Below, piece by piece: positions 5,945 through 53,809 of a stretch of 64,000 nucleotides of DNA. Source of the DNA: a virus. The stretch lies in the IMG/VR virus record IMGVR_UViG_3300021373_000005; one strand, written 5' to 3'. Numbering within the stretch: the stretch's first letter is position 1; each line of letters opens with the position of its first letter. A program made the position numbers and the translations under genes. The notes under the pieces are model-generated. The model had not been told where the DNA came from, ran no database searches, and saw only the letters and a program-made list of their open reading frames with translations.

Positions 5945-7204
5945 ATGAAAAACATTGGATTCGCAAAGATTGGCAAGTCAGTCAAGTTTAAACGCAATAG
6001 GTTCTCACCTATCGGTGGAGACAACGAGCCATCTTCAGTTCTAATTGCACTCGCAAATAATAACCCAGACAAAACATTTTATATTATCGGTCGTTCTGAC
6101 TTCAGCACTCTTTCTGAATCTGAAGCTTTGGATTTATTTCCGTATGATAATGTAATTGATATTTGGAAAGGTATTAAGAATGATGAAACCGATAGCTTTT
6201 ATCGTCATGTGATTAACTATTTTAATCAGAGAGGATTTAAGTTAGATTATACTGTTATGATGGTAGGTCAAGTTGGTACTGTTACGATCCCAGGTAAGAT
6301 TACTCAAGTGAAACATTTAAAAGAAGGTATCACTGACGGTAAACCTGCTTCTGTGATTGATATGACAAAGAACTATACTTCTCCTATTGCGATTTGGTTA
6401 AATGAAGAAAAGCCTGACTACGTTGAGATTGTAAATGATCCACGATATGTAATGAATCAATCAAGAGATATCTTTCATTTACCAAATAAGTCGTTAGGTC
6501 AATATGATTATAAGTATAAAGCAAGTACAATAGAATCATATGAAAACCAAGAACGATCCGACAAATTTGTAGAATCTGTATATGCAGGAATGGAAACAAA
6601 CTTTTGTGTTCGTTACGACTATACAGAAGAATTTAATACAACAAGAAACATTCCTTTTATGGTCATATTGAATGAAGGTAAACCTTCAAGATATGGATTG
6701 ATGAAGGAATGGGTATTGAACGATTTTGAAGATGTTGAAGTTTATGGAAAATGGGAACACCCAGATACAGAAACTGATGCTAGGTTCAAAGGTTCTATTC
6801 ATCTTGACGATGTAATTCGTAAATTGGATAATGTTAAATTTACGTTTATTATTCCAATTGAAAAAGGTTGGGTAACAGCAAAGTATATTGAAATGATACA
6901 CGCAGGAGTTGTTCCTTTCTTACATCCAACATATGATGAACAGAAACATTTACCTATACCTGACTTCTTACGACCAAAAACTCCAACTGAGTTTAAAGAA
7001 AGAATGGATAGATTACTAAATAATGAAGAAGAGTACTTATCAGTAGTTAAAGGATTGCGTAAACTTATATGCAAGCCTGAGTTATATGATGGCACCTTCT
7101 TAAACAATAAAATTATGACAGCAATTGATGAAGATTATATCGCTACTGATATATCACAATACGAAAAGAAAACTGCTGCTACACTTGAGGACTTTTTTGG
7201 ATGA
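5945..7204 (+). CDS. GT-B glycosyltransferase, T4 beta-glucosyltransferase-like
   Basis: VNDPRY aligns with BGT FTDIRL (catalytic Asp); the VYGK...FKGSI...VTAKYIEM...P..EF.ER...L C-terminal lobe parallels BGT. Confidence 0.7.
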   Translation: MKNIGFAKIGKSVKFKRNRFSPIGGDNEPSSVLIALANNNPDKTFYIIGRSDFSTLSESEALDLFPYDNVIDIWKGIKNDETDSFYRHVINYFNQRGFKLDYTVMMVGQVGTVTIPGKITQVKHLKEGITDGKPASVIDMTKNYTSPIAIWLNEEKPDYVEIVNDPRYVMNQSRDIFHLPNKSLGQYDYKYKASTIESYENQERSDKFVESVYAGMETNFCVRYDYTEEFNTTRNIPFMVILNEGKPSRYGLMKEWVLNDFEDVEVYGKWEHPDTETDARFKGSIHLDDVIRKLDNVKFTFIIPIEKGWVTAKYIEMIHAGVVPFLHPTYDEQKHLPIPDFLRPKTPTEFKERMDRLLNNEEEYLSVVKGLRKLICKPELYDGTFLNNKIMTAIDEDYIATDISQYEKKTAATLEDFFG

Positions 7205-8421
7205 AACAAGATATAACATGGGCACCACTTATTCCGCTTATTGGTGGACAAATGCTAGGAGCGGAAAAAGCTTTCGGTAAACCACCCGAAGCAATTTATT
7301 CTTATAGTGGATTTGAAGCTAACGATGGACATTATGTCAATTATCAACAAGTAACGAAAGGACGTGATATTCCTTATGTATTACTTGATTCTGAAAATCC
7401 AAATATTAAACAAGTGGATGTAGTATCAGGTACTCCACCTTGCGCTGCATTATCACAATTAAATACTGGATTAACTGAAGAATCAAAAGGTGCTAAATGT
7501 GCAAAGAACGAATTTATGTATCAGGTCTTTCAAGATGGTATTGATGTTTTAGGAGCAAAGGTTGTTATTGTTGAGAACGCTCCTGCACTATATACAAACA
7601 AAGGTCGTCCAGTCGCAAATAGACTGTATGAAATTTGTGCTGAGAGAGGTTATTCTTTATCTCTGTATAAAACCTCAACGAGATATCATGGAGTTCCTCA
7701 GGGACGAGATAGAACGTTTGCGATTGGTTGGAAGTCAAGTACTTCTCCTGTATTAAACTGGTATAACCGTGATCGTAAATCATTTGCCGAATATCTTAAA
7801 GAAATTCCTGATGATGCATTACAACACGATTTGATTATTAATAAGAATGTACCTGAAGAACCTTACTATACATTTATTAAAACAAAAACAAACCGTGATG
7901 TAAGAGAGATTATGTTAGAAGAAGATGTAAAGACAACTCTCAATTATGTTAACAAAAAAGGTTGGATGAAAGAAGCAAACGAATGGTTCCATAAGACAGG
8001 ACATGAAAAAGGTATTAAGTATTCTGACCACGCAATTAAAAAGTATGCTGATGGATTAGGTGTATGGGATGGTTCAGTACATGTCTTTGGTGATTATATG
8101 AATGCAGTCATTGGTCGTAATATGGTTGATACGATTCACCCAACTGAAGATAGGTCATTAACTATTCGTGAAGCTCTACATATGATGGGATTCCCAGAAG
8201 ACTTTGAACTATTAGGTGGATTGCCTAAAGTAAATCATATTGCTCAAAATGTTCCTGTACCTACATCAAGAGATTTACATTCTGAGATTGGTAAATTTTT
8301 AAGAGGCGAACTAACATTATCTGATACCACTTATTTAAGACAAAACAATCATAAACAATTAATGGAGTTTGACCCTAACGGAAAAGATACAACTCCATCT
8401 CTTGAAGAATTTATGTCATAA
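7201..8421 (+). CDS. DNA cytosine-C5 methyltransferase-like protein with degenerate motif I
   Basis: GTPPC (IV), ENAP (VI), PQGRDR (VIII), RSLTIREALHMMGFP (IX), AQNVP (X); motif I reads IPLIGG instead of FxGxGG. Confidence 0.82.
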   Translation: MKQDITWAPLIPLIGGQMLGAEKAFGKPPEAIYSYSGFEANDGHYVNYQQVTKGRDIPYVLLDSENPNIKQVDVVSGTPPCAALSQLNTGLTEESKGAKCAKNEFMYQVFQDGIDVLGAKVVIVENAPALYTNKGRPVANRLYEICAERGYSLSLYKTSTRYHGVPQGRDRTFAIGWKSSTSPVLNWYNRDRKSFAEYLKEIPDDALQHDLIINKNVPEEPYYTFIKTKTNRDVREIMLEEDVKTTLNYVNKKGWMKEANEWFHKTGHEKGIKYSDHAIKKYADGLGVWDGSVHVFGDYMNAVIGRNMVDTIHPTEDRSLTIREALHMMGFPEDFELLGGLPKVNHIAQNVPVPTSRDLHSEIGKFLRGELTLSDTTYLRQNNHKQLMEFDPNGKDTTPSLEEFMS

Positions 8422-13078: not shown

Positions 13079-13165
13079 ATTTAGTAAGGTGCCGTAAGGG
13101 CTTTACAAAAGGTGATGGGTAATAACCATCGAATAATAATATCTAGCTTATTAAAGGAGATAAAA

Positions 13166-13615
13166 ATGACTGGATTAAATATAAATCAACTACACCCTTT
13201 TGCTGTAGGATTCGATAGAGTCTTCGACAGATTGGTGGAGTTCCCTCAAGTACATCAATCACAAGGCTTCCCGCCTTACAATATCAGAAGAGACGAAGAC
13301 AAGTTCTATATTGACCTTGCTTTGGCAGGACTTGATATTGATGATGTAGAAATCGAAGTAAAAGAAGATGTATTAACCATTCGTTCCACATGGGATGAAG
13401 CAGGTGATTACTTCAATGGCGGCGGTGAGTATGTTCACCGTGGTATTTCTTTCAAGAAGTTCAAAAGAAGCTTTACTCTTGCGGACGATATTGAAGTAAT
13501 TGACGCCAACTTCGCAAACGGTCTTTTAACTGTCTCATTGGAAAGAATTATTCCTGAGGCAAAGAAAGCACGTAAAATTAAGATTAAAACTGAGAAAGAA
13601 CTTCTCAAAGGTTAA
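13166..13615 (+). CDS. small heat-shock protein Hsp20 (IbpA-like)
   Basis: GFDR.F, FPPYNI, LAG, RGIS...F.RSF.LA, NGLL; AAGGAG RBS before ATG 13166. Confidence 0.93.
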   Translation: MTGLNINQLHPFAVGFDRVFDRLVEFPQVHQSQGFPPYNIRRDEDKFYIDLALAGLDIDDVEIEVKEDVLTIRSTWDEAGDYFNGGGEYVHRGISFKKFKRSFTLADDIEVIDANFANGLLTVSLERIIPEAKKARKIKIKTEKELLKG

Positions 13616-13628
13616 TCTATTTTAATCC

Positions 13629-13649
13629 GGGAGGTCGCAATGGCCTCCC
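13629..13649 (+). other. intergenic RNA hairpin without U tract
   Basis: GGGAGGTC-GCAAT-GGCCTCCC stem in the prx leader. Confidence 0.5.
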
Positions 13650-13669
13650 AACTAAAAGGAAACTATATT

Positions 13670-14179
13670 ATGAAACAAGTACCTAACGTTACTTTCAAAG
13701 TAAGAAGCAGAAATGTAGACACAGGTGATTTTGAATGGCAACATCCAACAACCAATGATTATTTTGGTGGTAAGAGAGTTGTAATGTTCTCATTACCTGG
13801 CGCATTTACACCAACCTGTTCTAATAATCAAGTACCAGGATTCGATGTCCTATATGACCAAATTATTGAAGCAGGTATTGATGAAGTATATTGCGTATCC
13901 TGTAATGATACATTCGTTATGAATGCATGGGCTGAAGATCTTAGAGTCAAGAATGTTAAATTCATTCCTGATGGATCTTGTGAATTTACAGCAGGTATGG
14001 AAATGTTAGTCGCAAAGGATAATCTTGGTTTCGGTAAAAGATCTTGGAGATATGCTGCTGTCGTAGAAGACGGTGTTGTTGAAAAGATGTTTGTTGAACC
14101 TGGATTTGAAGATGACTGTCCAACAGATCCTTATGGTGAATCTTCGCCTGAAACTGTTCTTGCTTATTTAAAACAATAA
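13670..14179 (+). CDS. peroxiredoxin (Prx5 type)
   Basis: SLPGAFTPTCS..QVPG, SCND.FVM.AW, RSWRYA. Confidence 0.93.
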   Translation: MKQVPNVTFKVRSRNVDTGDFEWQHPTTNDYFGGKRVVMFSLPGAFTPTCSNNQVPGFDVLYDQIIEAGIDEVYCVSCNDTFVMNAWAEDLRVKNVKFIPDGSCEFTAGMEMLVAKDNLGFGKRSWRYAAVVEDGVVEKMFVEPGFEDDCPTDPYGESSPETVLAYLKQ

Positions 14180-18555: not shown

Positions 18556-19017
18556 TTATCGAGCTCCTGGAATATGTTTTTCGGTCATAATTGTAAATTG
18601 CCAACCTCTATCTGCACAAAAGGATTTTGCTGCCTTCCATTTGGCTTCATTGATTCCCCATGTTTTAACTTCATTTAAATATCTTCTTGATATTCTACCT
18701 GTCTTTGTTTTATTTTTATTCTTCGGATCTGGTGGTCTACATTGAGCACTTGGTTTAATCTCAATCATAATCGTTTGAGGATTACCAAGATTATCTTTCT
18801 TGTGTACTATCACATCCGGAAAATATCTGTGCACTTTACCATCTATCGGAGACCTGTAAGGAACAATCACTTCTTCGGATTGCCACCATATAACATCACG
18901 ATGCATATCCATCCATTTAAACACTTTAAATTCCCATAAAGACCTATAAATAATCTTAGTAGGATCACCTTTATACTTATCGGGATTTTTTGGTCTAAAT
19001 TTACCCTTATATGCCAT
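18556..19017 (-). CDS. 4: head completion nuclease gp4
   Basis: MAYKGKF.PKNP.KYKGD...I.YRS.WE, WQSEE..VPY, HRYFPD, IEIKP, N.AKW.AA. Confidence 0.93.
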   Translation of the reverse strand: MAYKGKFRPKNPDKYKGDPTKIIYRSLWEFKVFKWMDMHRDVIWWQSEEVIVPYRSPIDGKVHRYFPDVIVHKKDNLGNPQTIMIEIKPSAQCRPPDPKNKNKTKTGRISRRYLNEVKTWGINEAKWKAAKSFCADRGWQFTIMTEKHIPGAR

Positions 19018-43216: not shown

Positions 43217-43224
43217 TATAAATA
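43217..43224 (+). promoter_or_regulatory. T4 late promoter
   Basis: TATAAATA 29 nt before ATG 43253. Confidence 0.8.
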
Positions 43225-43252: not shown

Positions 43253-46200
43253 ATGGCAAAAATTTCAGAATTACCTCCGATTACCGGTGCCAATACCAGG
43301 CCTGAAGACCTGTTCGTAATCGTCAACCTTGTTCAAGGAGACGACGGCACAAGTAATATTACTAGGAAGGAATTAGTTGAAGCAATTCAATACGAAATCT
43401 TTTCTAGAATAAACATCACTGGTGGAACAATCTCCGGTGTGGTTATGTCTGACTCACGATTAAATAACGTTGAGATAGATAATTCTGAAATTGAAGATAC
43501 CGATTTTATTCGCGGTTCAATTGATGATACCGTAATCACAAACAGTACTGCCAATAATATTACAATGACTTATAGTAGTTTCCAATTTGGAACACTGCTT
43601 GATTCTTCTGCTAACAATTTAACAATTACTTCATCTGACTTTTCACAAGGCACAGGTAATAATAACGTACTCACAAATACTACACTACTTGATGGTAGTG
43701 CTAATAATTTTGTTATTACAGACTCAACTGCCAACAACATTATCATTACGAATTCAGAACTTAATGACAGTACAGCAAATAATGTTGCGATTACAGATTC
43801 AACAGTAAATAACACAATCATAACAAGTTCTGAGTTTAATGACGGAACTGCTAACAACGTAGCAATTACTCAATCTGATTTTTCTGACGGAACAATTAAT
43901 CAATCAGTTATTGAAACTTCCGAGTTTAATAATGGTACGATGGAGACAGTTACTGGTATTAATTTAGATATCAGCAACTCTGCATATGCTAACGGAACTG
44001 TTTCTGATTCTATATTAACAGATAATACTATCCTTAACGGTACAGCAAATAATATTGCGATTACAGATTCAACCGCTAATAATACTATTATAACAAATTC
44101 TGAATTTAATGATGGCACAGGCAACAATGTCACATTAACTAATTCAACAATTGATGATTCACTATTCAGTGATGGTACTATTTCTAATACCTCATTCACA
44201 GGTACAATGGATAGTGTTGTCGCAACCAACATACAAATCAGAAGTTCAACTGCTGATGGTTTAGGTGCAAACAATTCAACGTTTGAAAATGGTGGAATAT
44301 CAGGTTCAACCTTTGACGGTGGCGTAATTAATAAATCCAATCTTGTCGACTTCGACATGGATATTAATACAGAATTTGAAGCACCAATGGATGATGAATC
44401 CTATTTTGCTATTCGTAACGAAAAGACAGGTGATACAGAACAAATTAACTTCGGTCAATTATTCGACGAAGTATCTAAGAAAACAGCACAGGCATTAAAG
44501 GTACACGTTGACGCAGGATCTGGTGATGATAAGAACCCAGGTACTCAATTACAACCTGTTAGAACATTAGAAAAAGCATTTGAACTTTGTTTAGAAAAAG
44601 CAGGTGGCGAATTAAATCGTAACGCAATTAATAACTCTGTTCATATTTCAGTTGGGCCAGGAACATATTATACAAAAGGTAATCTGCAGTTACCTGATGA
44701 CTGTTCAATTACTTCCACATCAGGACAGTATGCGACAGTCATCGAATTAGAAAAAGGTTATGAAAATAATAATGGTATTCTTGTAGGTTCTGGTTGTTAT
44801 GCTCAAGGATTTGCATATCAGAATTTCCAAGTTGATAACTTTGATTTCCCAGAAGGCGGATTCGCGGTTGCGTATCGTCCTGGTGCTAAGTTATTGCGTT
44901 CACCGTACTTAAGAGATAGTTCACAGTTATCAAACTTCTTACGTGCTGATGTTGAACCACCTTTGAATCCTTACAACTCAAAAGGTACTCTTGCTGACTT
45001 AGGTAGAGAATTTACATTAAGTAATATTTCAGATCCTACCAAGTTTGCGATTGATGATGAAATAGAATTCTCATCAGGTGCAATCGGTTATGTATCTTAT
45101 ATTTCTGAAATTGCTTCAGATAGTAAAATACACGTTAGAAATTTAAAGAACAATCAAGGATTCGCTGTAGGAGATACAATTACTGCTGAATCTGGTGGTA
45201 CTGCTGTTATTCAAGAAATCGGAATTGACGACTTCCCTAACAGAGAGGTTGGTCGAGGCGGTGGTTGTGTACTTGCAGATAGAAGAGTACTTGATACCGA
45301 TTCATTATATACATATGTATTATGTTTTGGTTTCACACCTCGTTCACAAAACGGTATCGGTTATGTAGCAAGAGACGGTGCTGGTGTTAACGGTATTGGT
45401 TCATTGTCCATCTTTGTTCGTTGCGCATTCTATGCTCTGAATGGTGGTCAGATGACGCTGAACAACTCAGGTACTCAGTTCGGTGATATCTCAATGAGGG
45501 CAAAAGGTACTACTGAGTTCTTTGCTCCAAAATCAACAACAGCAACAATTATTGGTAATACTGCATTCGCTGATACGGTTGATAATGCTGCTGATGATAT
45601 CATTGATGATGTTGTTGAGTATTTAACTGCCAATACAGCAAATGGTGGATTAGGTTATCAAGCATACGATTCAGAAAAATGTTTAAGAGATTCAGGTATC
45701 GTACTTGATGGTACAGGATATGACGTTGCTCTTGATACGAACTATTGGGGAAGACTTGGTGGAATTACATATAGGTCTCCTATCAGTTATGTTGTACCAG
45801 GTGAACAGCTTGAAGAAACAAAAGGTGCATTAGAATACCTAAGAGATAGAACAAAAGAAATCTTTGTAACGGGTAATTCTGAAGTTAACGAACGTGTTGA
45901 AGCATCCTTTGGGGAACTTTTAAATGTCCTTGAATACGGTGAAGAAAATATCAACCCGATTATATGGCAAGATACTTCAGTACCTCGAACAGCTGCCAGA
46001 AACCTCATACAAGACAACCGAGAGTTTATTACTGGAGAGTTAATTGATTGGATAGAAAACAACGATGAATTCTATGCTTACGATAGTAAAGCTTGTCGAC
46101 GTGATGTATCTGACTATATTCTACCTGCTGTTAAAAACGATATGCAATTTGACACAAACTATAATGCTGTCACTGCAGGTCGTGCTTATTACATGGCTGC

Positions 46201-49200
46201 AGCTAAAACTGTTATTGAAAATCAGAATAACGAAACAGTTGAAGCATATCGCAGATTAAAGGACCAAACAAACGAATTACTTGATGGAGATTCATATACT
46301 GCTTCTGCGAAAACCGATGCAGCCTTTGATGAAATCTTATCTATCCTTGAAAATAAAGGAAAACAGTTTACACCTACTGCCGCTACTTATGACCCAGAAA
46401 CTGGGAAATCAGTTATCACACTCGGCACAGGCCACGGATTAACAGTTGGAAGATATGTACTTCTAAAAACTGGTGGACTCATATTTACTTGTGACCGAGA
46501 TAATCATACAACAAGAACAGGATATCCTCGAGCTTCTGACCCAGCTGCAGGTACTCCGGTTGAAATTATTGGTGCAAACGAAACCAAGATTACAGTTAAT
46601 GTTGGTAAGTCAGCAATTGTTGATGTACACAAATTTGTTGAAGCATTACCTAATTCTGTATCAGTTCTTGGTTCAGCAATTGCATGGAGTGATTCATCGT
46701 CTATTCCTGCTGATAAGAGAAACGCAAGAAAACAACTCGAAGCAAACAGAGAATTCTTACAAGACTTAGTATTAGGATATATTGATAATAACTATTTCAG
46801 ATATGATTCTAACAAGTGCCGTAGAGATATTCAAGATTATATTTTACCTGCGGTTGAAAGAGACATCCTAACAGGTTCAAACTATAATGCATATCAGACA
46901 GGTATTGCTTATCGTTCAGGTACTACTCTTGCGGACAATGTAATTAACGAACAGTTGGTAGAAACAACTGGAGCAATTAACGAATTAAAAACAAGAGTAA
47001 ATACTGATGAGATTGGTTCTCAATTTACTCCGACCAATGCTACTTACGACCCAGTAACTGGAAGATTTGAGGCAACTATTGGTATACATAGTTTACAACC
47101 AGGTGATTATGTAAGGTTCCTTGAAGATGGTATTACATTTAGTTGTGATACAGGAAGCGGACCTACAAACGATGCAGTTCCAAATCCAGGACATCCTTTC
47201 TATAATCATCCTTGCCCTGTTCACTCAGTTACACCTACAACTATTGTATGTTATGTAGGAACAGGCGGTACTAACGATCATACATTTGTATCAGCCCTAA
47301 CAAATGCAATTAGTCATGTGATTGGTATTTCTGATAAGGCATCAGAACATCGTTCAGATGAAGCATTTGATAAAATCATTGGTATTTTAAATAGTGCAAA
47401 TAAAACATACGATACATCTTCTGCTAATTATGACCCAGTGACAGGATTAACTGAAATTACAATCGGTGCTCACGATTTACAAGTCGGTGACGAAGTAATG
47501 ATTGCAGCTGACAGTATGACATTTACTTGTGCAACTGATGGTAATGCAACACAACATACTTACCCAACGACAACAATTACAAGCTTTACTCCAAGTACTG
47601 CTACTTATGTACCTGAAACTGGAGAATTTACTGCTAACATCGGACCTCATAAATTAAAAGTTGGAGATGAAATTGAATTTGCTCCAAGAGGTATTACATT
47701 TACTTGTGAACTTGATGGTAATGTTACTGAACATTCTGCTCCTGAACCACATCATCCTTTCTGGGACAAGAAAGTTAAATTAACTTCAGTTGAAGGAAAT
47801 GTAATTGGATGTAATGTTGGTGCAGTTGCTAACGGCGGTGGAGTACATACATTTGTATCTGCTATCACAAACGCAATCAAAGGTGAAAGACAACATCCTG
47901 CTTATAAGAAACCAGTTGTGGTCGCAGCAACAACAGCAACAACATTTACTGTTAATGTAGGTACCTCAACTGATACTTCTGTTCATACATTCGTATCTGC
48001 TACAGCAGGAAATATTAAAACTGCTAAACATATTTCAACATATACACCTTATGACGCAACATACGATCCTGCGACTGGAGTCTTTGTTGCTTCAATTGGA
48101 AAACACAATTTAGAAGCTGGTGATTATGTAATGATTAAACCTAATTCGGTTATCTTTACATGCGACTTGGACGGTAATGTTACTGAACATGCTGCTCCTC
48201 AATCACACCATCCTGCATACAGAACACCTGTTAAATTGGATTCAGTAACTACTGATACAATTACAATGAACATTGGAACAGGTACTGGAGGTGCTCATAC
48301 ATTTGTTAGAGCAACACAAGGTGCAATTGATTCTGATGCGTTAGTATTTACTGACCCAGCATCTTATGTATCTCATTATACTCCAACAACTGCTACATAC
48401 GATCCTGTCACAGGAATCAGTGTAATTACAATCCCAGGTCATGATTTAACAACAAATGATTATATTGAGTTTGCTCCATATTCATTTACTTATACTTGTG
48501 CTCAAGATAGTAACGCAACTGAACATTCATATCCAAGAAAAGGTGATAGTAATTACAGAACTCCAATGGCAATCACAAATGTTGCTGGTGATGATATTAC
48601 TGTTCAACTTGCTGCATCTTCAGGTGGAGCTCATACATTTGTATCAGTAATTAAGGATGCGGTATCTAAAGTTACTTACAATTCTCAAGGTCAATACGCA
48701 AGAGAACAATTACAGAAAAACAAAGAATTCTTGGCTAAGGAAGTTTCATCTTACTTAGAATCAAATTACTTTGTATTTGACGGAAACAAATGTTCAAGAG
48801 ATACAGGATATATTCTTGATGCCGTAAGACGTGATGTTGCTACAGGTTCTAATTATCATACTGTATTTACAGGACTAGGTTATCAAATAGGAACAAAAGG
48901 TTCTAACGAAGTTATAACAGAACAGTTAACTGAAACAGTTGCTGCTATCAATTATATGAAAGCAAAAGTTGCTGCTGATGTGAATGTCACAGGAACTGCA
49001 TTAACAAGAGCTAACGCTGCGTTTGATGAAATTATTGATATTATGCAAAATGGTTCAGGTAATGCTAATGTTCTAGGTTATGGTTCTGCTGCAGCCGTTC
49101 CTAATGGAGTTGATGCAACTGACGCTTTAATTACAAACAGAACATTCTTACAAAAAGAAGTTACAGCTTACATTGCTCAAAACTTCCCAACAGTATCATA

Positions 49201-52200
49201 CAATGTTGCTAAATGTGAAAGAGATACTGGTTATCTTGTAGATGCAATTGTATGGGATGTAAGATTTGGTTCTAATGCAGCTGCGATTAACTTCGCAAGA
49301 TTATATTACGAAAATGCAATCAGTGTATTACCTGAAGACCAAAAATTACCTACTGCTAAAACATGGGAACACCTCGCAGAAGTTTGTTATAAAATAGCAA
49401 GGCAAGAAACTGTAACTCCAACAACAGGAAACGGTGAAGTATTTACTGCTATCGCAAGTGATGCAGGAATTGAAATTGCGAATGCAATACGCAACGGTGT
49501 TAATGTCACAACGCAAATTATTAGAGATGATGATTTAAAATCATTACCTACATTGAACGAAGGTGAAGTTGAAACCGCAATGATTGCTGCAGTAAATGCA
49601 ATTGATGGTTTAACAGAAAATCTTCAAGAAAGTGTTATTAAATATCTTAAAGATGAACATAACGGATTACCATTCAGTAAAGCAGTTTGTGAAAGAGATG
49701 TTGGTATTATCATCGATGCAGTATCAAGAGATATTGAATACGGCGGTAATGAAAATACAGTTGAAGTATTTGAGTATTACTTCAAGAGATTCAATACAAC
49801 ATCGGCTGATTACGAACAACTACGTTCAACCAATGTTCTTCCAATCGAAGTCAAAGGTCAATTTAAAACATTATCCGATTACGAAGATACAGCAAATGTT
49901 TCAGGTTTAAGAGAAGCAATTAACGTATTACCTTACGAACAGCGTGAACCAACAAGAGAAGCATTTAATCATCTTGCTGATATGGCAGAAAAGATTGTTA
50001 AAGAAGTTGCTCATACTTCAACATATACAAGTTATACACCAACTAATGCTACTTATGACCCGGCAACTGGAGTCTTCGTGGCAACTATCGGTGCTCACAA
50101 TTTTGTAAAAGGTGATACGATATATCTGAAACCAAACGGAATTACATTTAGTTGTAATATGGGAAGTGGTGCTGCCAACCATACTTCACCACAACCACAT
50201 CATCCTTATTATCAGAAAGCAATAACACTTACTGATACTGATGCGACAACAATTACAATGAATGTAGGAACAGGTGGTTCTGGTCAATATCCTCATACAT
50301 TTGTATCTGCTCTTGCGGATTCAATTAGTGAAGGTCCATATCAGGATGTTGATGGAACTGCGGCCGATGCAACAACAGGTACTGCGGTACATGATTTAAT
50401 TGCGACTGTTGCTAACCTGATTGACGATACAAATATTGAAGATGATGAAATGCCTGTAATTACAAAGGCAAGCTTTGACCCTAACAGAACATTAGCAAGA
50501 AAACAATTACAAAGAAACAGAGACTTTATTATCGAAGAAGTCCAAGGTTATCTCAAAGATCGTTACTATGTATTTGACGGTGATAAGTGTAAAAGAGATA
50601 TCGGATTCCTTCTTGATGCTGTAGCAGTTGATGTATTGACTGGTTCAAACTATAATGCAGTATTTAACGGTGTTGCATATAGAATAGGAACAGTTGGTGC
50701 TGATGCGGTAATTAACGAACAGTTAACTGAAACAGTATCAGCAATTAAATATGCTCAAGGTTTAGCAGTTGCTGCTGTCACTGACAGCACAATGAAAACA
50801 AAAGTAAATGAAGCATTTGCTGAAATCATTGATGTTATGACAAATGGTAGAGCAGCCGCTGATACAATTGACTATACAAGTGTTGCACCAAGCTTTAACC
50901 GACTTAATGCAAGGTCTCAGTTACAAAATAACAGAACATTCCTTATTGCTGAAATGACAGCATGGCTTGCAGCAAATCGTCCATCATTAACTTATGATGT
51001 TGCTAAATGTGAAAGAGATACAGGATACTTAATTGATGCTGTTTCTCATGATGCTCAGTTCGGTGGAAACTTTGCTACTCTCAATGATGCAAAACTATAC
51101 TTTGAGAATGCGGTCATTCAATTACCTGAAGAACAAAGACAACCTACAGCAGATGCATTTAAACATTTAGGTGATTGTGCTGAGTTAATTTGTTTAGACC
51201 AAGACATCGGTGGATTAAAATCTGCAGGTAACGGTGAAACACAAGATAGGACAGCAGGTGGTGCAGGAGCAGGTATATCGGCTTCAATAGAAGGATTATT
51301 TGATATCGTAGCAGGTTCAATTGAGAACAATACTACTTTACTTAATCCTGCTCAAGAGTTACCTGATGCAACTTCATTTAACGCTGTAAATTCAACAGCG
51401 TTTGCTCAAGTACAAGGTGTTATCCCAACAGTTCAATCTGGTGTTCTAGGACATCTTGCTACATACTTTGAGATACTTCCATATAGTGAAACAAAATGTC
51501 GAAGAGATACAGGTTATATCATCGATGCAGTTGCACACGATATTCAATATGGTGGAAACGCAGCAACAGTTCAAACTGCAGGAATGTATTTTGAGAATGC
51601 TGTTAACACTGGATTACAAATTGAACAAAGAATGGGAACAAGAGATGCATTCTTACACATGGCAAAAATCATTGAACATGTCGTAGGTGCTAAATCTATT
51701 ACAACAACTTTATTCCCAAGAGTTAAGAAATATTACACAGGTGATATTTTAACTCAATACGATTATTGGAACGGAATACATTCTTATCAATCAGTTGAAG
51801 CTCAAGATATGGCAGTACATGGTGCAAACCCTGATACTTCTATCGCAGCAAGAAAACTTGTTGAAATTATTGCGAATGCGGTTGATGATAATGTTGAAGT
51901 TAGAAATACAATCCCAGATCGCATTGATGTTGACCAAACTTGGATGGGTGCTAACTATATTACTTCTAAGGAATTAGTTGAAAGTCAATCAGATGTATAT
52001 TCTGAAGCAGTTATTAGTTATCTTACAACAACACATAACGGTTTAAGTTTCAGAGATGCAAAATGTAGAAGAGATATCGGATACTTAATTGATTCCGCTA
52101 TGCACGATGTTCAACATGACACAAACTTTGCTATGCGTCAATCAGCAGGAATTTACTTCGAGAATGGAGTATCAGTACTTCCTGTAGATGCAAGAATAGC

Positions 52201-53809
52201 AACTGCTGACATTTATGAATTCTTAGGTGATGCTGCTAAGCAAGTTGTTGAAGGTGTTGCCGTAACGAACGCAAGTACATATACATTAATGCCTCAAGAT
52301 ACAACTACTCATACTGCAGCAACAACTGCTGAAGGTGATAGAGTTCATGAGTTAATTGAATATGTTGAAGATGTAATTAGAGCCAACGATGTTGATGAGT
52401 TACCTGGACCTGAGTTCACAGCTTCTTGGGTACCTGCAGAATTAACAACTGCTGCTCAAACTATTGTTGATAATACAGAAGAACTTGCTTCTGATGTAAC
52501 GAATCATATTAATACAAACTTCAACGTTCTTGATTACAGTAAAGCAAAATGTAGAAGAGATACAGGATACTTACTTGATGCATTCAGCTTCGACTTGAAC
52601 TTCGGTGGTAATACTGCTTCACGTTGGAACGCAGACTTCTACTTCTGGAATTCAGTATATCGTTTACCTGAAGACCAAAGAATACCTACTGCGAAAGCAT
52701 ATCGTCAATTAGGTAGAATTTGTAAAGATATCGTATTAGGTGAATATAAAGGACAAACAACAATTGGTGAAGTAGGAACTTCGGTTGAAAGTCTGAAAGT
52801 TGAAATGTTAGCAAATATCTTCTATAAGACACAACTATATAACGATACCAAGTACTTACCTGTTAAGGAAGAGCCTGATTATACATACAGTGATGCTGTA
52901 TTTACAAATGCACAAAATATTATTGAGCAAAGAAGAAAACAATTACAGAAAGATACTGTAAGATTTGTAAATGCTGCTTACGACTTCATTGATATTAATC
53001 TAACAAGACGTGATGCAAGAAACTTGTTAACCGCTCTTCAGAATGATTTCAAATATGAAGATCTTCAAGTACCTGTTCCAAGTTATACAACAAACGGTAA
53101 TCAGAATGCAGTAAGAACATATACCGCTTCATTCTTCAATTACGACGGAACTCATGTATTCCCAGTATTTAATCCTTCGGATCCAACATTAGGATTGAAG
53201 TATAAAGGTTCAGTTAATGATGTTGCTGATTTAGGAAGTCTTACAGGAATGAAACCAAACTGGGCATATATTGTTGCGACTGATTATGCAACTAATTACT
53301 ATGCCGGTGATATATATTATTGGAATGGTATTCAGTTCGTAAATGCAGGAGCAAACAATACTGACCTATTAGATGCATTTGTTGGATCATGGGACAGAAT
53401 GAGAACATACATTGTAAATAATCTATCTCCTGACTCAGACCACAGTCTGATGATTGAAGGATTATTTGACGATTGCTTGAAGGATAATATCTTGAGACCT
53501 AATACATTGGTATTCGGATCATTGGTTGAATCCATTGCTCACCAGTTTAACGGTGCATCGGCTGGTGTTAACAGAAATGCATTACCTCTAAACTTCAGAA
53601 ACTTAGGTGCTGCTATATCAGCGATTGCCTCGGTACTGAATGAAGATGGTGGTAGAATCCGATGGTCAGGTGCTGATGAATTGAATAACCAGTACTTCGC
53701 AAGAGGACTAAGAATTAACGGTAGAACAGGTCGTATTGAAGGCCGACCATTTACTTCCTCTGTAAGAAAGCTCGCAAGACGTGCTTCGAACAGTAGGGCA
53801 GTAGTTTAA
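43253..53809 (+). CDS. giant (3518 aa) multi-repeat virion/fibre protein
   Basis: MAKISELP fibre-type start, Asn/Ser/Thr repeats, a beta-helix-like region (VGPGTY), 11 CxRD helical repeats and 7 His/Cys beta repeats; late promoter. Confidence 0.85.
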   Translation: MAKISELPPITGANTRPEDLFVIVNLVQGDDGTSNITRKELVEAIQYEIFSRINITGGTISGVVMSDSRLNNVEIDNSEIEDTDFIRGSIDDTVITNSTANNITMTYSSFQFGTLLDSSANNLTITSSDFSQGTGNNNVLTNTTLLDGSANNFVITDSTANNIIITNSELNDSTANNVAITDSTVNNTIITSSEFNDGTANNVAITQSDFSDGTINQSVIETSEFNNGTMETVTGINLDISNSAYANGTVSDSILTDNTILNGTANNIAITDSTANNTIITNSEFNDGTGNNVTLTNSTIDDSLFSDGTISNTSFTGTMDSVVATNIQIRSSTADGLGANNSTFENGGISGSTFDGGVINKSNLVDFDMDINTEFEAPMDDESYFAIRNEKTGDTEQINFGQLFDEVSKKTAQALKVHVDAGSGDDKNPGTQLQPVRTLEKAFELCLEKAGGELNRNAINNSVHISVGPGTYYTKGNLQLPDDCSITSTSGQYATVIELEKGYENNNGILVGSGCYAQGFAYQNFQVDNFDFPEGGFAVAYRPGAKLLRSPYLRDSSQLSNFLRADVEPPLNPYNSKGTLADLGREFTLSNISDPTKFAIDDEIEFSSGAIGYVSYISEIASDSKIHVRNLKNNQGFAVGDTITAESGGTAVIQEIGIDDFPNREVGRGGGCVLADRRVLDTDSLYTYVLCFGFTPRSQNGIGYVARDGAGVNGIGSLSIFVRCAFYALNGGQMTLNNSGTQFGDISMRAKGTTEFFAPKSTTATIIGNTAFADTVDNAADDIIDDVVEYLTANTANGGLGYQAYDSEKCLRDSGIVLDGTGYDVALDTNYWGRLGGITYRSPISYVVPGEQLEETKGALEYLRDRTKEIFVTGNSEVNERVEASFGELLNVLEYGEENINPIIWQDTSVPRTAARNLIQDNREFITGELIDWIENNDEFYAYDSKACRRDVSDYILPAVKNDMQFDTNYNAVTAGRAYYMAAAKTVIENQNNETVEAYRRLKDQTNELLDGDSYTASAKTDAAFDEILSILENKGKQFTPTAATYDPETGKSVITLGTGHGLTVGRYVLLKTGGLIFTCDRDNHTTRTGYPRASDPAAGTPVEIIGANETKITVNVGKSAIVDVHKFVEALPNSVSVLGSAIAWSDSSSIPADKRNARKQLEANREFLQDLVLGYIDNNYFRYDSNKCRRDIQDYILPAVERDILTGSNYNAYQTGIAYRSGTTLADNVINEQLVETTGAINELKTRVNTDEIGSQFTPTNATYDPVTGRFEATIGIHSLQPGDYVRFLEDGITFSCDTGSGPTNDAVPNPGHPFYNHPCPVHSVTPTTIVCYVGTGGTNDHTFVSALTNAISHVIGISDKASEHRSDEAFDKIIGILNSANKTYDTSSANYDPVTGLTEITIGAHDLQVGDEVMIAADSMTFTCATDGNATQHTYPTTTITSFTPSTATYVPETGEFTANIGPHKLKVGDEIEFAPRGITFTCELDGNVTEHSAPEPHHPFWDKKVKLTSVEGNVIGCNVGAVANGGGVHTFVSAITNAIKGERQHPAYKKPVVVAATTATTFTVNVGTSTDTSVHTFVSATAGNIKTAKHISTYTPYDATYDPATGVFVASIGKHNLEAGDYVMIKPNSVIFTCDLDGNVTEHAAPQSHHPAYRTPVKLDSVTTDTITMNIGTGTGGAHTFVRATQGAIDSDALVFTDPASYVSHYTPTTATYDPVTGISVITIPGHDLTTNDYIEFAPYSFTYTCAQDSNATEHSYPRKGDSNYRTPMAITNVAGDDITVQLAASSGGAHTFVSVIKDAVSKVTYNSQGQYAREQLQKNKEFLAKEVSSYLESNYFVFDGNKCSRDTGYILDAVRRDVATGSNYHTVFTGLGYQIGTKGSNEVITEQLTETVAAINYMKAKVAADVNVTGTALTRANAAFDEIIDIMQNGSGNANVLGYGSAAAVPNGVDATDALITNRTFLQKEVTAYIAQNFPTVSYNVAKCERDTGYLVDAIVWDVRFGSNAAAINFARLYYENAISVLPEDQKLPTAKTWEHLAEVCYKIARQETVTPTTGNGEVFTAIASDAGIEIANAIRNGVNVTTQIIRDDDLKSLPTLNEGEVETAMIAAVNAIDGLTENLQESVIKYLKDEHNGLPFSKAVCERDVGIIIDAVSRDIEYGGNENTVEVFEYYFKRFNTTSADYEQLRSTNVLPIEVKGQFKTLSDYEDTANVSGLREAINVLPYEQREPTREAFNHLADMAEKIVKEVAHTSTYTSYTPTNATYDPATGVFVATIGAHNFVKGDTIYLKPNGITFSCNMGSGAANHTSPQPHHPYYQKAITLTDTDATTITMNVGTGGSGQYPHTFVSALADSISEGPYQDVDGTAADATTGTAVHDLIATVANLIDDTNIEDDEMPVITKASFDPNRTLARKQLQRNRDFIIEEVQGYLKDRYYVFDGDKCKRDIGFLLDAVAVDVLTGSNYNAVFNGVAYRIGTVGADAVINEQLTETVSAIKYAQGLAVAAVTDSTMKTKVNEAFAEIIDVMTNGRAAADTIDYTSVAPSFNRLNARSQLQNNRTFLIAEMTAWLAANRPSLTYDVAKCERDTGYLIDAVSHDAQFGGNFATLNDAKLYFENAVIQLPEEQRQPTADAFKHLGDCAELICLDQDIGGLKSAGNGETQDRTAGGAGAGISASIEGLFDIVAGSIENNTTLLNPAQELPDATSFNAVNSTAFAQVQGVIPTVQSGVLGHLATYFEILPYSETKCRRDTGYIIDAVAHDIQYGGNAATVQTAGMYFENAVNTGLQIEQRMGTRDAFLHMAKIIEHVVGAKSITTTLFPRVKKYYTGDILTQYDYWNGIHSYQSVEAQDMAVHGANPDTSIAARKLVEIIANAVDDNVEVRNTIPDRIDVDQTWMGANYITSKELVESQSDVYSEAVISYLTTTHNGLSFRDAKCRRDIGYLIDSAMHDVQHDTNFAMRQSAGIYFENGVSVLPVDARIATADIYEFLGDAAKQVVEGVAVTNASTYTLMPQDTTTHTAATTAEGDRVHELIEYVEDVIRANDVDELPGPEFTASWVPAELTTAAQTIVDNTEELASDVTNHINTNFNVLDYSKAKCRRDTGYLLDAFSFDLNFGGNTASRWNADFYFWNSVYRLPEDQRIPTAKAYRQLGRICKDIVLGEYKGQTTIGEVGTSVESLKVEMLANIFYKTQLYNDTKYLPVKEEPDYTYSDAVFTNAQNIIEQRRKQLQKDTVRFVNAAYDFIDINLTRRDARNLLTALQNDFKYEDLQVPVPSYTTNGNQNAVRTYTASFFNYDGTHVFPVFNPSDPTLGLKYKGSVNDVADLGSLTGMKPNWAYIVATDYATNYYAGDIYYWNGIQFVNAGANNTDLLDAFVGSWDRMRTYIVNNLSPDSDHSLMIEGLFDDCLKDNILRPNTLVFGSLVESIAHQFNGASAGVNRNALPLNFRNLGAAISAIASVLNEDGGRIRWSGADELNNQYFARGLRINGRTGRIEGRPFTSSVRKLARRASNSRAVV
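43480..44340 (+). repeat. ~10-aa-period N/S/T/D repeats (NN..IT.S....) suggesting a beta-solenoid
   Basis: e.g. ANNIAITDSTANNTIITNSEFNDGT recurs. Confidence 0.75.
45600..53050 (+). repeat. 11 helical ~140-190-aa repeats with L..NR.F...E...YI...Y...KCxRDxGY..DA...D...G.N
   Basis: Cys codons at 45680, 46094, 46817, 48791, 49214, 49688, 50588, 51008, 51497, 52064 and 52550; a degenerate 12th copy (TRRD) near 53005. Confidence 0.9.
46366..50330 (+). repeat. seven ~100-aa beta repeats TP..ATYDP.TG....IG.H.L..GD...F(T/S)C...H..P..HP...HTFV
   Basis: Copies start near 46366, 47025, 47408, 47585, 48040, 48380 and 50033. Confidence 0.88.

Follow-up and report, generated by a model that had tools for sequence, protein, structure and literature searches.

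A giant gene with eleven tandem C.RD repeats

The 64-kb stretch of viral DNA considered here (IMG/VR record IMGVR_UViG_3300021373_000005), which is called the window below, holds on its plus strand an uninterrupted open reading frame (ORF) at 43253..53809 that encodes a giant protein of 3518 aa. Our subject is a repeat of about 145 aa in this protein, named the globin repeat after its predicted fold, and its possible binding of a linear tetrapyrrole (bilin). The motif C.RD occurs 12 times in the protein, versus 0.09 expected from its composition. Eleven of these stand in a repeated context, with their cysteines at aa 810, 948, 1189, 1847, 1988, 2146, 2446, 2586, 2749, 2938 and 3100; the other (aa 1080) sits inside another repeat module and not in a globin repeat. 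The repeat has the consensus ...NR.FL..EV..YL.....Y...KC.RD.GY..DAV..D...G.N......Y....LP.EQR..T..A...L..., and the Cys-to-Cys spacings of directly adjacent copies are 138, 141, 158, 140, 163, 189 and 162 aa. Searching the window with a profile of the repeat gave 11 strong copies (E 1e-27 to 1e-46), all in the giant ORF and none elsewhere in the window, together with a degenerate 12th half-copy (aa 3204-3270, 'LTRRDA') that lacks the Cys. The array spans 45518-53062 and occupies the middle and C-terminal two thirds of the protein. The initial annotation, made from the sequence alone, had placed 11 CxRD repeats in the 3518-aa protein at 45600-53050, with uninterrupted Cys-to-Cys spacings of 138-189 aa. 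Motif count and profile confirm the number, the recomputed spacings and consensus agree with those it gave, and its interval covers the array. The gene and its repeats, the latter all located with the repeat profile, are:

43253..53809, plus strand: giant structural gene, 3518 aa (PHROG tail fiber and virion structural matches; orthologues in 80 IMG/VR loci)
45518..45967, plus strand: globin repeat 1 (Cys aa 810, CLRD)
45944..46393, plus strand: globin repeat 2 (Cys aa 948, CRRD)
46673..47083, plus strand: globin repeat 3 (Cys aa 1189, CRRD)
48653..49081, plus strand: globin repeat 4 (Cys aa 1847, CSRD), the source of a sub-threshold Pfam Phycobilisome match
49067..49495, plus strand: globin repeat 5 (Cys aa 1988, CERD)
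49544..50086, plus strand: globin repeat 6 (Cys aa 2146, CERD); helix F is followed by ~42 inserted aa
50447..50884, plus strand: globin repeat 7 (Cys aa 2446, CKRD); the motif is C.AD, C.TD or CSGD in some orthologues
50861..51292, plus strand: globin repeat 8 (Cys aa 2586, CERD), used for the structure model
51350..51787, plus strand: globin repeat 9 (Cys aa 2749, CRRD)
51917..52351, plus strand: globin repeat 10 (Cys aa 2938, CRRD)
52406..52813, plus strand: globin repeat 11 (Cys aa 3100, CRRD)
52862..53062, plus strand: degenerate 12th half-repeat 'LTRRDARNLL', Cys replaced by Thr (profile E 0.0017; also present in orthologues)

Conservation of the repeat

At least 123 related stretches are found in IMG/VR, and the best 80, whose giant proteins are 37-99% identical, were analysed. 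Almost every complete orthologue has exactly 11 copies; one (IMGVR_UViG_3300018876_000047) has 20 globin repeats instead of 11. Over these roughly 80 orthologous contigs the C.RD motif is kept in 830/844 copies, the rest being a few C.AD, C.TD or CSGD copies at repeat 7 plus the degenerate 12th copy. Among 833 full-length copies, the Cys and Asp of the motif, D65 and Y81 are each conserved in 100%, the Arg in 99%, N71 in 96%, T97 in 93% and Q93 in 88%, while in A2, an alignment of 141 diverse copies, the columns average 25% identity. As read from these alignments, a constellation of mostly polar residues in the repeat is under strong purifying selection. A search for free-standing short homologues (70-342 aa) among 5.8 billion proteins returned 8 matches and no bacterial single-domain relative. 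A contig is recorded for 7 of the 8, and 6 of those 7 contigs are shorter than 3 kb; the short matches are probably fragments of giant genes. Searching the ESM Atlas with the repeat gave no usable match.

Predicted fold

Repeat 8 was modelled with AlphaFold2 from two alignments, the shallow set of the 11 internal copies and then A2. The shallow model (pLDDT 71.7) already had phycobiliproteins as all 50 of its top Foldseek matches in the PDB. The A2-based model reached pLDDT 93.5 and pTM 0.87, with six helices (residues 13-24, 26-40, 48-68, 72-81, 91-112 and 138-147), and its 50 top PDB matches were likewise all phycobiliproteins (probability 1.0, TM 0.5-0.68, E >= 1e-2). In VIA-align, which is independent of Foldseek, the top 8 of 48,161 chains were all phycobiliproteins or the ApcE bilin domain, with 120-143 residues aligned and Z 11.2-13.8, values to be read with the caution that helical models can reach Z ~13-14 against unrelated chains by helix arrangement alone. 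The next ranks were two photocobilins (bilin/B12 photoglobins; Z ~10), globin-coupled sensors (9-10), RsbR (8.6) and haemoglobins (5-7). The published tree of bilin-binding globins has the same order as this ranking (PMC10151467). Because the ranking is ordered by family and the matches cover the whole domain, we argue from the model that the repeat has a real globin fold of the phycobiliprotein type. The initial annotation had claimed a phycobiliprotein fold, and the prediction supports it: the model is a globin whose nearest solved structures, by both methods, are phycobiliproteins.

The N-terminal X-Y hairpin of phycobiliproteins is absent from the model, in which only ~12 unstructured residues precede the first helix, and the VIA-align alignments begin at phycobiliprotein residues 17-34. 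In BFVD, pieces of giant proteins from T4-like cyanophages and uncultured Caudovirales show the same fold; their annotations say no more than tail, structural or hypothetical protein.

Sequence comparison with phycobiliproteins

Phycobilisome (PF00502) is the Pfam family matched most often by single repeats (15 of 141 at E <= 0.1, versus 3 for the next family); the best of these matches has E 0.0015, and none is reported over the cut-off. We compared the repeat profile by hhalign with 27 aligned phycobiliproteins drawn from cyanobacterial genome loci. The comparison gave 80.7% (E 1.3e-5, 112 columns) and placed Cys51 on Cys84 and GG69-70 on G102-G103. Both HMMER and hhalign align CxRD with Cys84-Arg86-Asp87, in keeping with the earlier claim that the motif matches the bilin-attachment site. 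The string K-C-x-R-D-x-G-Y stands at the start of the helix-E equivalent and matches Lys83, Cys84, Arg86, Asp87, Gly89 and Tyr90. The sequence similarity to phycobiliproteins appears to be essentially K-C-x-R-D-x-G-Y(x11)GG.

A second group of relatives to be compared is the BBAGs, distant phycobiliprotein paralogues of heterotrophs, some with CXRD, that are associated with HO and FDBR (bilin reductase), bind bilins without lyases and are of unknown function (PMC10151467; Rockwell, Martin and Lagarias 2023). Two weak PF00502 matches in a Chroococcus genome were considered as possible BBAGs; with n=2 they were too few and were not used.

Other parts of the giant protein and genomic context

The larger gaps between globin repeats are filled by a second, unrelated module of ~105 aa, present in 7 copies and rich in Cys and His, with the pattern 'YTPTxATYDPxTG...G.H.L..GD...FTC...G...H..P..HHP......VG....HTFVSA'. 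With its conserved Cys and its four or five His, the module may hold a metal site of the kind found in T4 fibre proteins. The N-terminal region has pentapeptide-like repeats and probably forms a beta-helix. These features, and a promoter-like element discussed below, are:

43217..43224, plus strand: T4-type late-promoter consensus TATAAATA, 29 nt before the giant-gene ATG
43421..44368, plus strand: pentapeptide-like repeat region, about aa 57-372 (Pfam Pentapeptide_4 36.7 bits, below the cut-off of 38; repeats visible in the translation)
46358..46657, plus strand: second module copy 1 ('TPTxATYDPxTG...FTC...'; repeat comparison)
47015..48697, plus strand: second module copies 2-6 (FTC..H..P..HHP..HTFVSA; repeat comparison)
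50024..50362, plus strand: second module copy 7 (repeat comparison)

The window belongs to a T4-like myovirus, having genes for the gp45 clamp and gp44 loader, for nucleotide metabolism and for the baseplate. Upstream of the giant gene lie gp53, gp48, gp5, gp25, gp6, gp7, gp8 and gp9-like baseplate genes, and after the baseplate genes come several very large proteins and collagen-like tail fibres, the fibre genes being downstream of the giant gene. The giant protein itself matches the PHROG categories 'tail fiber' (E 1e-117) and 'virion structural protein' (E 1e-114). The late-promoter consensus TATAAATA matches the window 8 times (positions 1379, 12570, 13071, 18945, 19039, 43217, 54262 and 59527), a count not above the 8.5 expected by chance; all 8 are on the plus strand, and most fall in short intergenic gaps just 5' of ORF starts. 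From its place in a baseplate and tail-fibre module, the PHROG matches and the TATAAATA before its ATG, it is plausible that the giant protein is a late virion protein.

By megablast, neither the giant gene nor window 1-25000 matched cultured phages. For gp6 the nearest homologue is that of the Sinorhizobium phage phiM12 group (40%), followed by those of Caulobacter Cr30 (34.5%) and Pelagibacter HTVC008M (32%), and psbA is absent from the five long related contigs searched. Judged by its core genes, the cultured phages nearest to this one infect alphaproteobacteria. Since gp6 has these affinities and the long relatives have no psbA, the phage appears not to be a cyanophage; its host is most likely a marine heterotroph, possibly an alphaproteobacterium.

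Some other genes of the window may be recorded here. An ORF on the minus strand at 18556-19017, among the baseplate genes, has a TnsA-like endonuclease N-terminal domain (Pfam E 2.4e-21); it adjoins a gp2-like DNA end protector gene and may be a homing or mobile endonuclease. Genes for Hsp20/alpha-crystallin and a peroxiredoxin (Redoxin/AhpC-TSA) are neighbours at 13112-14179, immediately ahead of the baseplate block on the minus strand. A C5 cytosine DNA methylase gene is found at 7201-8421 and a MazG-like PRA-PH gene at 704-1123.

Bilin-synthesis genes in relatives

Three related contigs carry a haem oxygenase gene (hemO) with a bilin reductase gene (FDBR). In G003 (170 kb; giant protein 53% identical), hemO is directly followed by FDBR ~62 kb upstream of the giant gene, and a 5-aminolevulinate synthase gene (alaS) scores well over its curated cut-off. 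In G033 (77 kb; giant protein 41% identical), the hemO-FDBR pair is ~64 kb upstream of the giant gene. G046 (89 kb) shares 17 collinear ORFs with window 1-13 kb (73-100% aa identity), and has hemO at 44179-44619, FDBR at 44864-45484 and alaS at 74514-75695; its hemO and FDBR lie ~30 kb upstream of the thymidylate synthase gene (thyA), and alaS another 30 kb on. By synteny with G046, the hemO-FDBR of the window phage would lie ~27 kb before the window start, and its alaS ~57 kb before it. These three contigs form one lineage and count as one evolutionary observation, not three. No related contig that clearly covers the expected cassette position is without the cassette, G005, which has ~64 kb of sequence upstream of the giant gene, being borderline for coverage; the other related contigs end before that position (G002 2.3 kb beyond thyA) and are uninformative. 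Genes for alaS were found in G002, G003, G045 and G046; the alaS of G002, a 156-kb relative (G002:C1:14118-15311), has one in-frame TGA, explicable by sequencing error, by disruption of the gene or by recoding.

No CpeT or CpeS lyase homologue was found in 7 related contigs, in a search whose S-PM2 control was positive for CpeT; this absence fits a lyase-independent bilin attachment as in BBAGs. The A2 profile found nothing in five other FDBR contigs, which are fragments of 21-42% that do not reach the giant-gene position and are uninformative. In the pelagimyophage Mosig (MT647606, 39650-43977), three 2OG-Fe(II) oxygenase genes and a ferrochelatase gene stand ahead of hemO-pcyX and neck protein genes follow it directly, which puts the pair at the edge of the structural module. 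The paper of Ledermann et al. (PMC11480375) describes a 'broken cassette' arrangement for metagenomic phages, calls the purpose of hemO and FDBR in such phages of non-cyanobacteria 'still enigmatic' and names a bilin-binding globin as one possibility.

The domain in cyanophages

T4-like cyanophages commonly have the domain, in giant proteins of the gp7-like baseplate or 'virion structural' kind; tblastn gave 146 records. Profile matches number 9 in S-PM2 (in two giant ORFs), 3 in Syn33, 5 in P-HM1 and 5 in P-HM2, many of the cyanophage copies having a canonical CxRD; phiM12 has no match. Depositors annotated the cyanophage homologues as 'virion structural protein'. A cyanophage subfamily has C-x-D-D (CYDD, CVDD, CIDD or CEDD), in which the Cys is kept and the Arg replaced; its members include PHM2_096 (P-HM2, GU075905), Syn33_092 and S-PM2p218. 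In S-PM2, the gene cpeT (record 163952-164479), whose product is homologous to T-type bilin lyases, stands ~1.4 kb upstream of a giant ORF (165928 onward) that holds four CxRD-type domains, with a 2OG-Fe(II) oxygenase gene between them.

S-PM2, P-HM1 and P-HM2 require light to adsorb; P-SSM2 can adsorb in darkness (PMC6628666). Presence of the domain tracks light-dependent adsorption in 4/4 of these phages (S-PM2, P-HM1 and P-HM2 have it, P-SSM2 does not), which amounts to at most three independent points, P-HM1 and P-HM2 being near-identical. We regard this match as a lead, not as evidence.

Discussion

Based on these findings, we consider it very probable that the array consists of globin-fold domains of the phycobiliprotein or BBAG kind, which retain the bilin-site motif and occur 11 times in a baseplate-associated giant protein. 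That these domains bind a bilin is, in our view, the best single explanation of three findings, and we hold it in even balance. The findings are that C, R and D are conserved to an extreme degree, that further polar residues are invariant and that tetrapyrrole genes occur in the lineage. The giant protein may thus be a candidate acceptor of the bilins that such phages make.

We suggest the following scheme for bilin binding. In the infected cell, each domain would take up one bilin, held by the Asp and Arg of the motif and probably joined to the invariant Cys by a thioether link. As with the BBAG globins, which assemble by themselves, a lyase would not be required, no CpeT/CpeS homologue having been seen in relatives. 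The pigment would be supplied through the phage alaS, the host haem pathway, hemO and the bilin reductase, the phage genes of this route being those seen in close relatives. After release, the virion would bear the chromophores in an array on a fibre attached to its baseplate, where light-gated adsorption, photoprotection or receptor binding are candidate roles; light-gated adsorption is the most testable. The full form of this scheme, a pigmented virion with 11 covalent bilins made by its own alaS, hemO and FDBR and serving as a virus-borne photoreceptor or antenna for light-dependent adsorption, seems unlikely to us. If it were true, it would explain what purpose is served by bilins made by phages of non-photosynthetic hosts, and also the light-dependent adsorption of T4-like cyanophages that is independent of host photosynthesis.

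Several results weigh against bilin binding or against kinship with phycobiliproteins. The whole protein matches PF00502 with only 17.2 bits (E 0.005), below the gathering threshold of 22.2, and a hidden Markov model (HMM) of the repeat, built from 11 or 141 sequences, had no significant match among PDB sequences: phycocyanins appeared at E ~1 among unrelated helical proteins, and the deeper profile did no better. When the 10 motif residues were masked, hhalign fell to 1.1%, with a score of 17.3 versus 12.3 for the reversed control, although the register of helices B and G stayed the same. Of the sequence match to phycobiliproteins made in the initial annotation, the motif therefore stands, and the part outside it is near background. 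Because masking leaves almost no signal, we claim no sequence-level homology beyond the motif; common ancestry would rest on the fold and on the motif at the equivalent place, not on the wider sequence. The phycobiliprotein invariants D13, R93 and Y97 are missing in the repeat, as is the X-Y hairpin, R93 aligning with Asp60; the repeat is therefore not a canonical member of the phycobiliprotein family. As for the genes, none for tetrapyrrole synthesis was found in the window itself, and the cassette of the relatives is ~60 kb from the giant gene and not adjacent to it. Genes for bilin synthesis are lacking in many cyanophages that have the domain; cyanophage hosts make bilins anyway. Conversely, the repeat profile found no match in the complete genomes of Mosig, which has hemO and pcyX, and P-SSM2, whose bilin genes are ho1, pebS, pcyA and cpeT. 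It follows that the domain does not regularly accompany phage bilin genes. The link to phage bilin synthesis proposed in the initial annotation holds to the extent that relatives carry hemO, FDBR and alaS, and fails for a general acceptor. Finally, we know of no report of a coloured phage particle.

Bilin binding has to be weighed against other explanations of the same data. The domain could be a structural spacer, a globin-derived helical block that gives a fibre rigidity and carries no chromophore, its conserved Cys, Arg, Asp, D65, N71 and Y81 serving folding or contacts from domain to domain or chain to chain. Phage fibres are commonly built of repeated domains, and the giant protein contains another, unrelated module in 7 copies; beyond the motif, likeness to phycobiliproteins is close to background, the domain and phage bilin genes each occur without the other, and CxDD variants exist. 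We consider a spacer possible but somewhat unlikely, since a Cys at 100% and an Arg and Asp at 99-100% over 833 copies with a mean identity of 25% would be unusual for packing. In phycobiliproteins, moreover, these three residues serve the chromophore and not the fold (PMC10151467), and the polar invariants D65, N71, Y81, Q93 and T97 fit a binding site better than a core. At the other extreme, an unrelated helical bundle with a chance or convergent CxRD-like motif would explain why Foldseek E-values are only ~1e-2, why HMM-to-sequence searches are not significant and how Z values of ~13-14, which helical models can reach against unrelated chains, could arise. An absence of common ancestry is nevertheless very improbable, as the matches rank in the order of the tree of bilin-binding globins (PMC10151467), the alignment extends over the entire domain with the motif at a topologically equivalent place, and helices B and G keep their register with the motif masked.

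It may also be that the domain binds another ligand, such as haem, another tetrapyrrole or a metal, for example to bring haem or iron to a receptor in the host outer membrane (a 'Ferrojan horse'), or that its Cys forms some other covalent bond. The globin fold itself and the Z of 9-10 with sensor globins would be in line with this, as would alaS, which raises haem supply, in the four relatives that have it, and the Cys/His-rich second module; the invariant helix-F Tyr and the invariant Cys could be axial ligands. Such a ligand is distinctly unlikely, however: no His is conserved at the proximal position, the best structural matches bind bilin and not haem, the motif equals the bilin site residue for residue, and the relatives have hemO, which destroys haem, beside a bilin reductase.

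The repeat differs in several respects from known systems. With the light-harvesting phycobiliproteins (PF00502; C-phycocyanin, phycoerythrin, allophycocyanin and the ApcE bilin domain) it shares the globin-type fold, the helix-E motif and the GG. It is shorter (~145 aa versus 160-185) and has its own invariant set D65, N71, Y81, Q93 and T97; because the X-Y hairpin is absent, neither an alpha-beta monomer nor ring assembly is expected. A phycobiliprotein is a free antenna subunit, whereas the repeat occurs 11 times in tandem in a phage protein, likely in a non-cyanobacterial host. The best functional analogy is with the BBAGs, compared here by description and not by sequence: they are single-domain cellular proteins encoded beside FDBR, whereas the repeat is in tandem in a virion-type protein ~60 kb from the cassette. 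Among phages, the hemO-pcyX/alaS cassettes are the closest system, and our relatives carry the same 'broken cassette', with alaS ~30 kb from hemO-FDBR. The portion of Ledermann et al. available to us (PMC11480375) describes the enzymes with the acceptor unknown, makes no mention of a giant globin-repeat protein and assigns its marine contigs to pelagimyophages, whereas gp6 of the window lineage is nearer the phiM12 group. The giant gp7-like proteins of T4-like cyanophages (PHROG 701, 5342, 4527 and 18802; PHM2_086, Syn33_092, S-PM2p218) have the same domain family, at 2-9 copies per genome, in the same neighbourhood as the window gene (gp6, gp8, gp9). Their copies are fewer and scattered, many with CxDD, the proteins are ~26% identical to that of the window, and their annotations are limited to tail fiber, structural or hypothetical. 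In the literature searched, we found no phycobiliprotein-like or globin domains described in phage structural proteins, which is not proof of novelty.

For some two decades phages have been known to encode bilin synthesis (ho1, pebS, pcyA, pcyX and, more recently, alaS), to our knowledge without a convincing acceptor. The present locus offers a concrete phage-encoded candidate, which is testable in E. coli within days. Even without a bilin, the domain would be an unannotated globin-fold family, widespread in giant baseplate proteins of marine T4-like phages and worth naming. If bilin is bound, the virion would be the first virus particle known to have covalently attached light-absorbing pigments, and the bilin-binding globins, whose origin outside cyanobacteria is under active study (PMC10151467), would gain a new branch as well as a new architecture. 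Bilin binding would also suggest a molecular basis for the light-dependent adsorption of phages, which shapes the daily rhythm of infection among the ocean's main primary producers.

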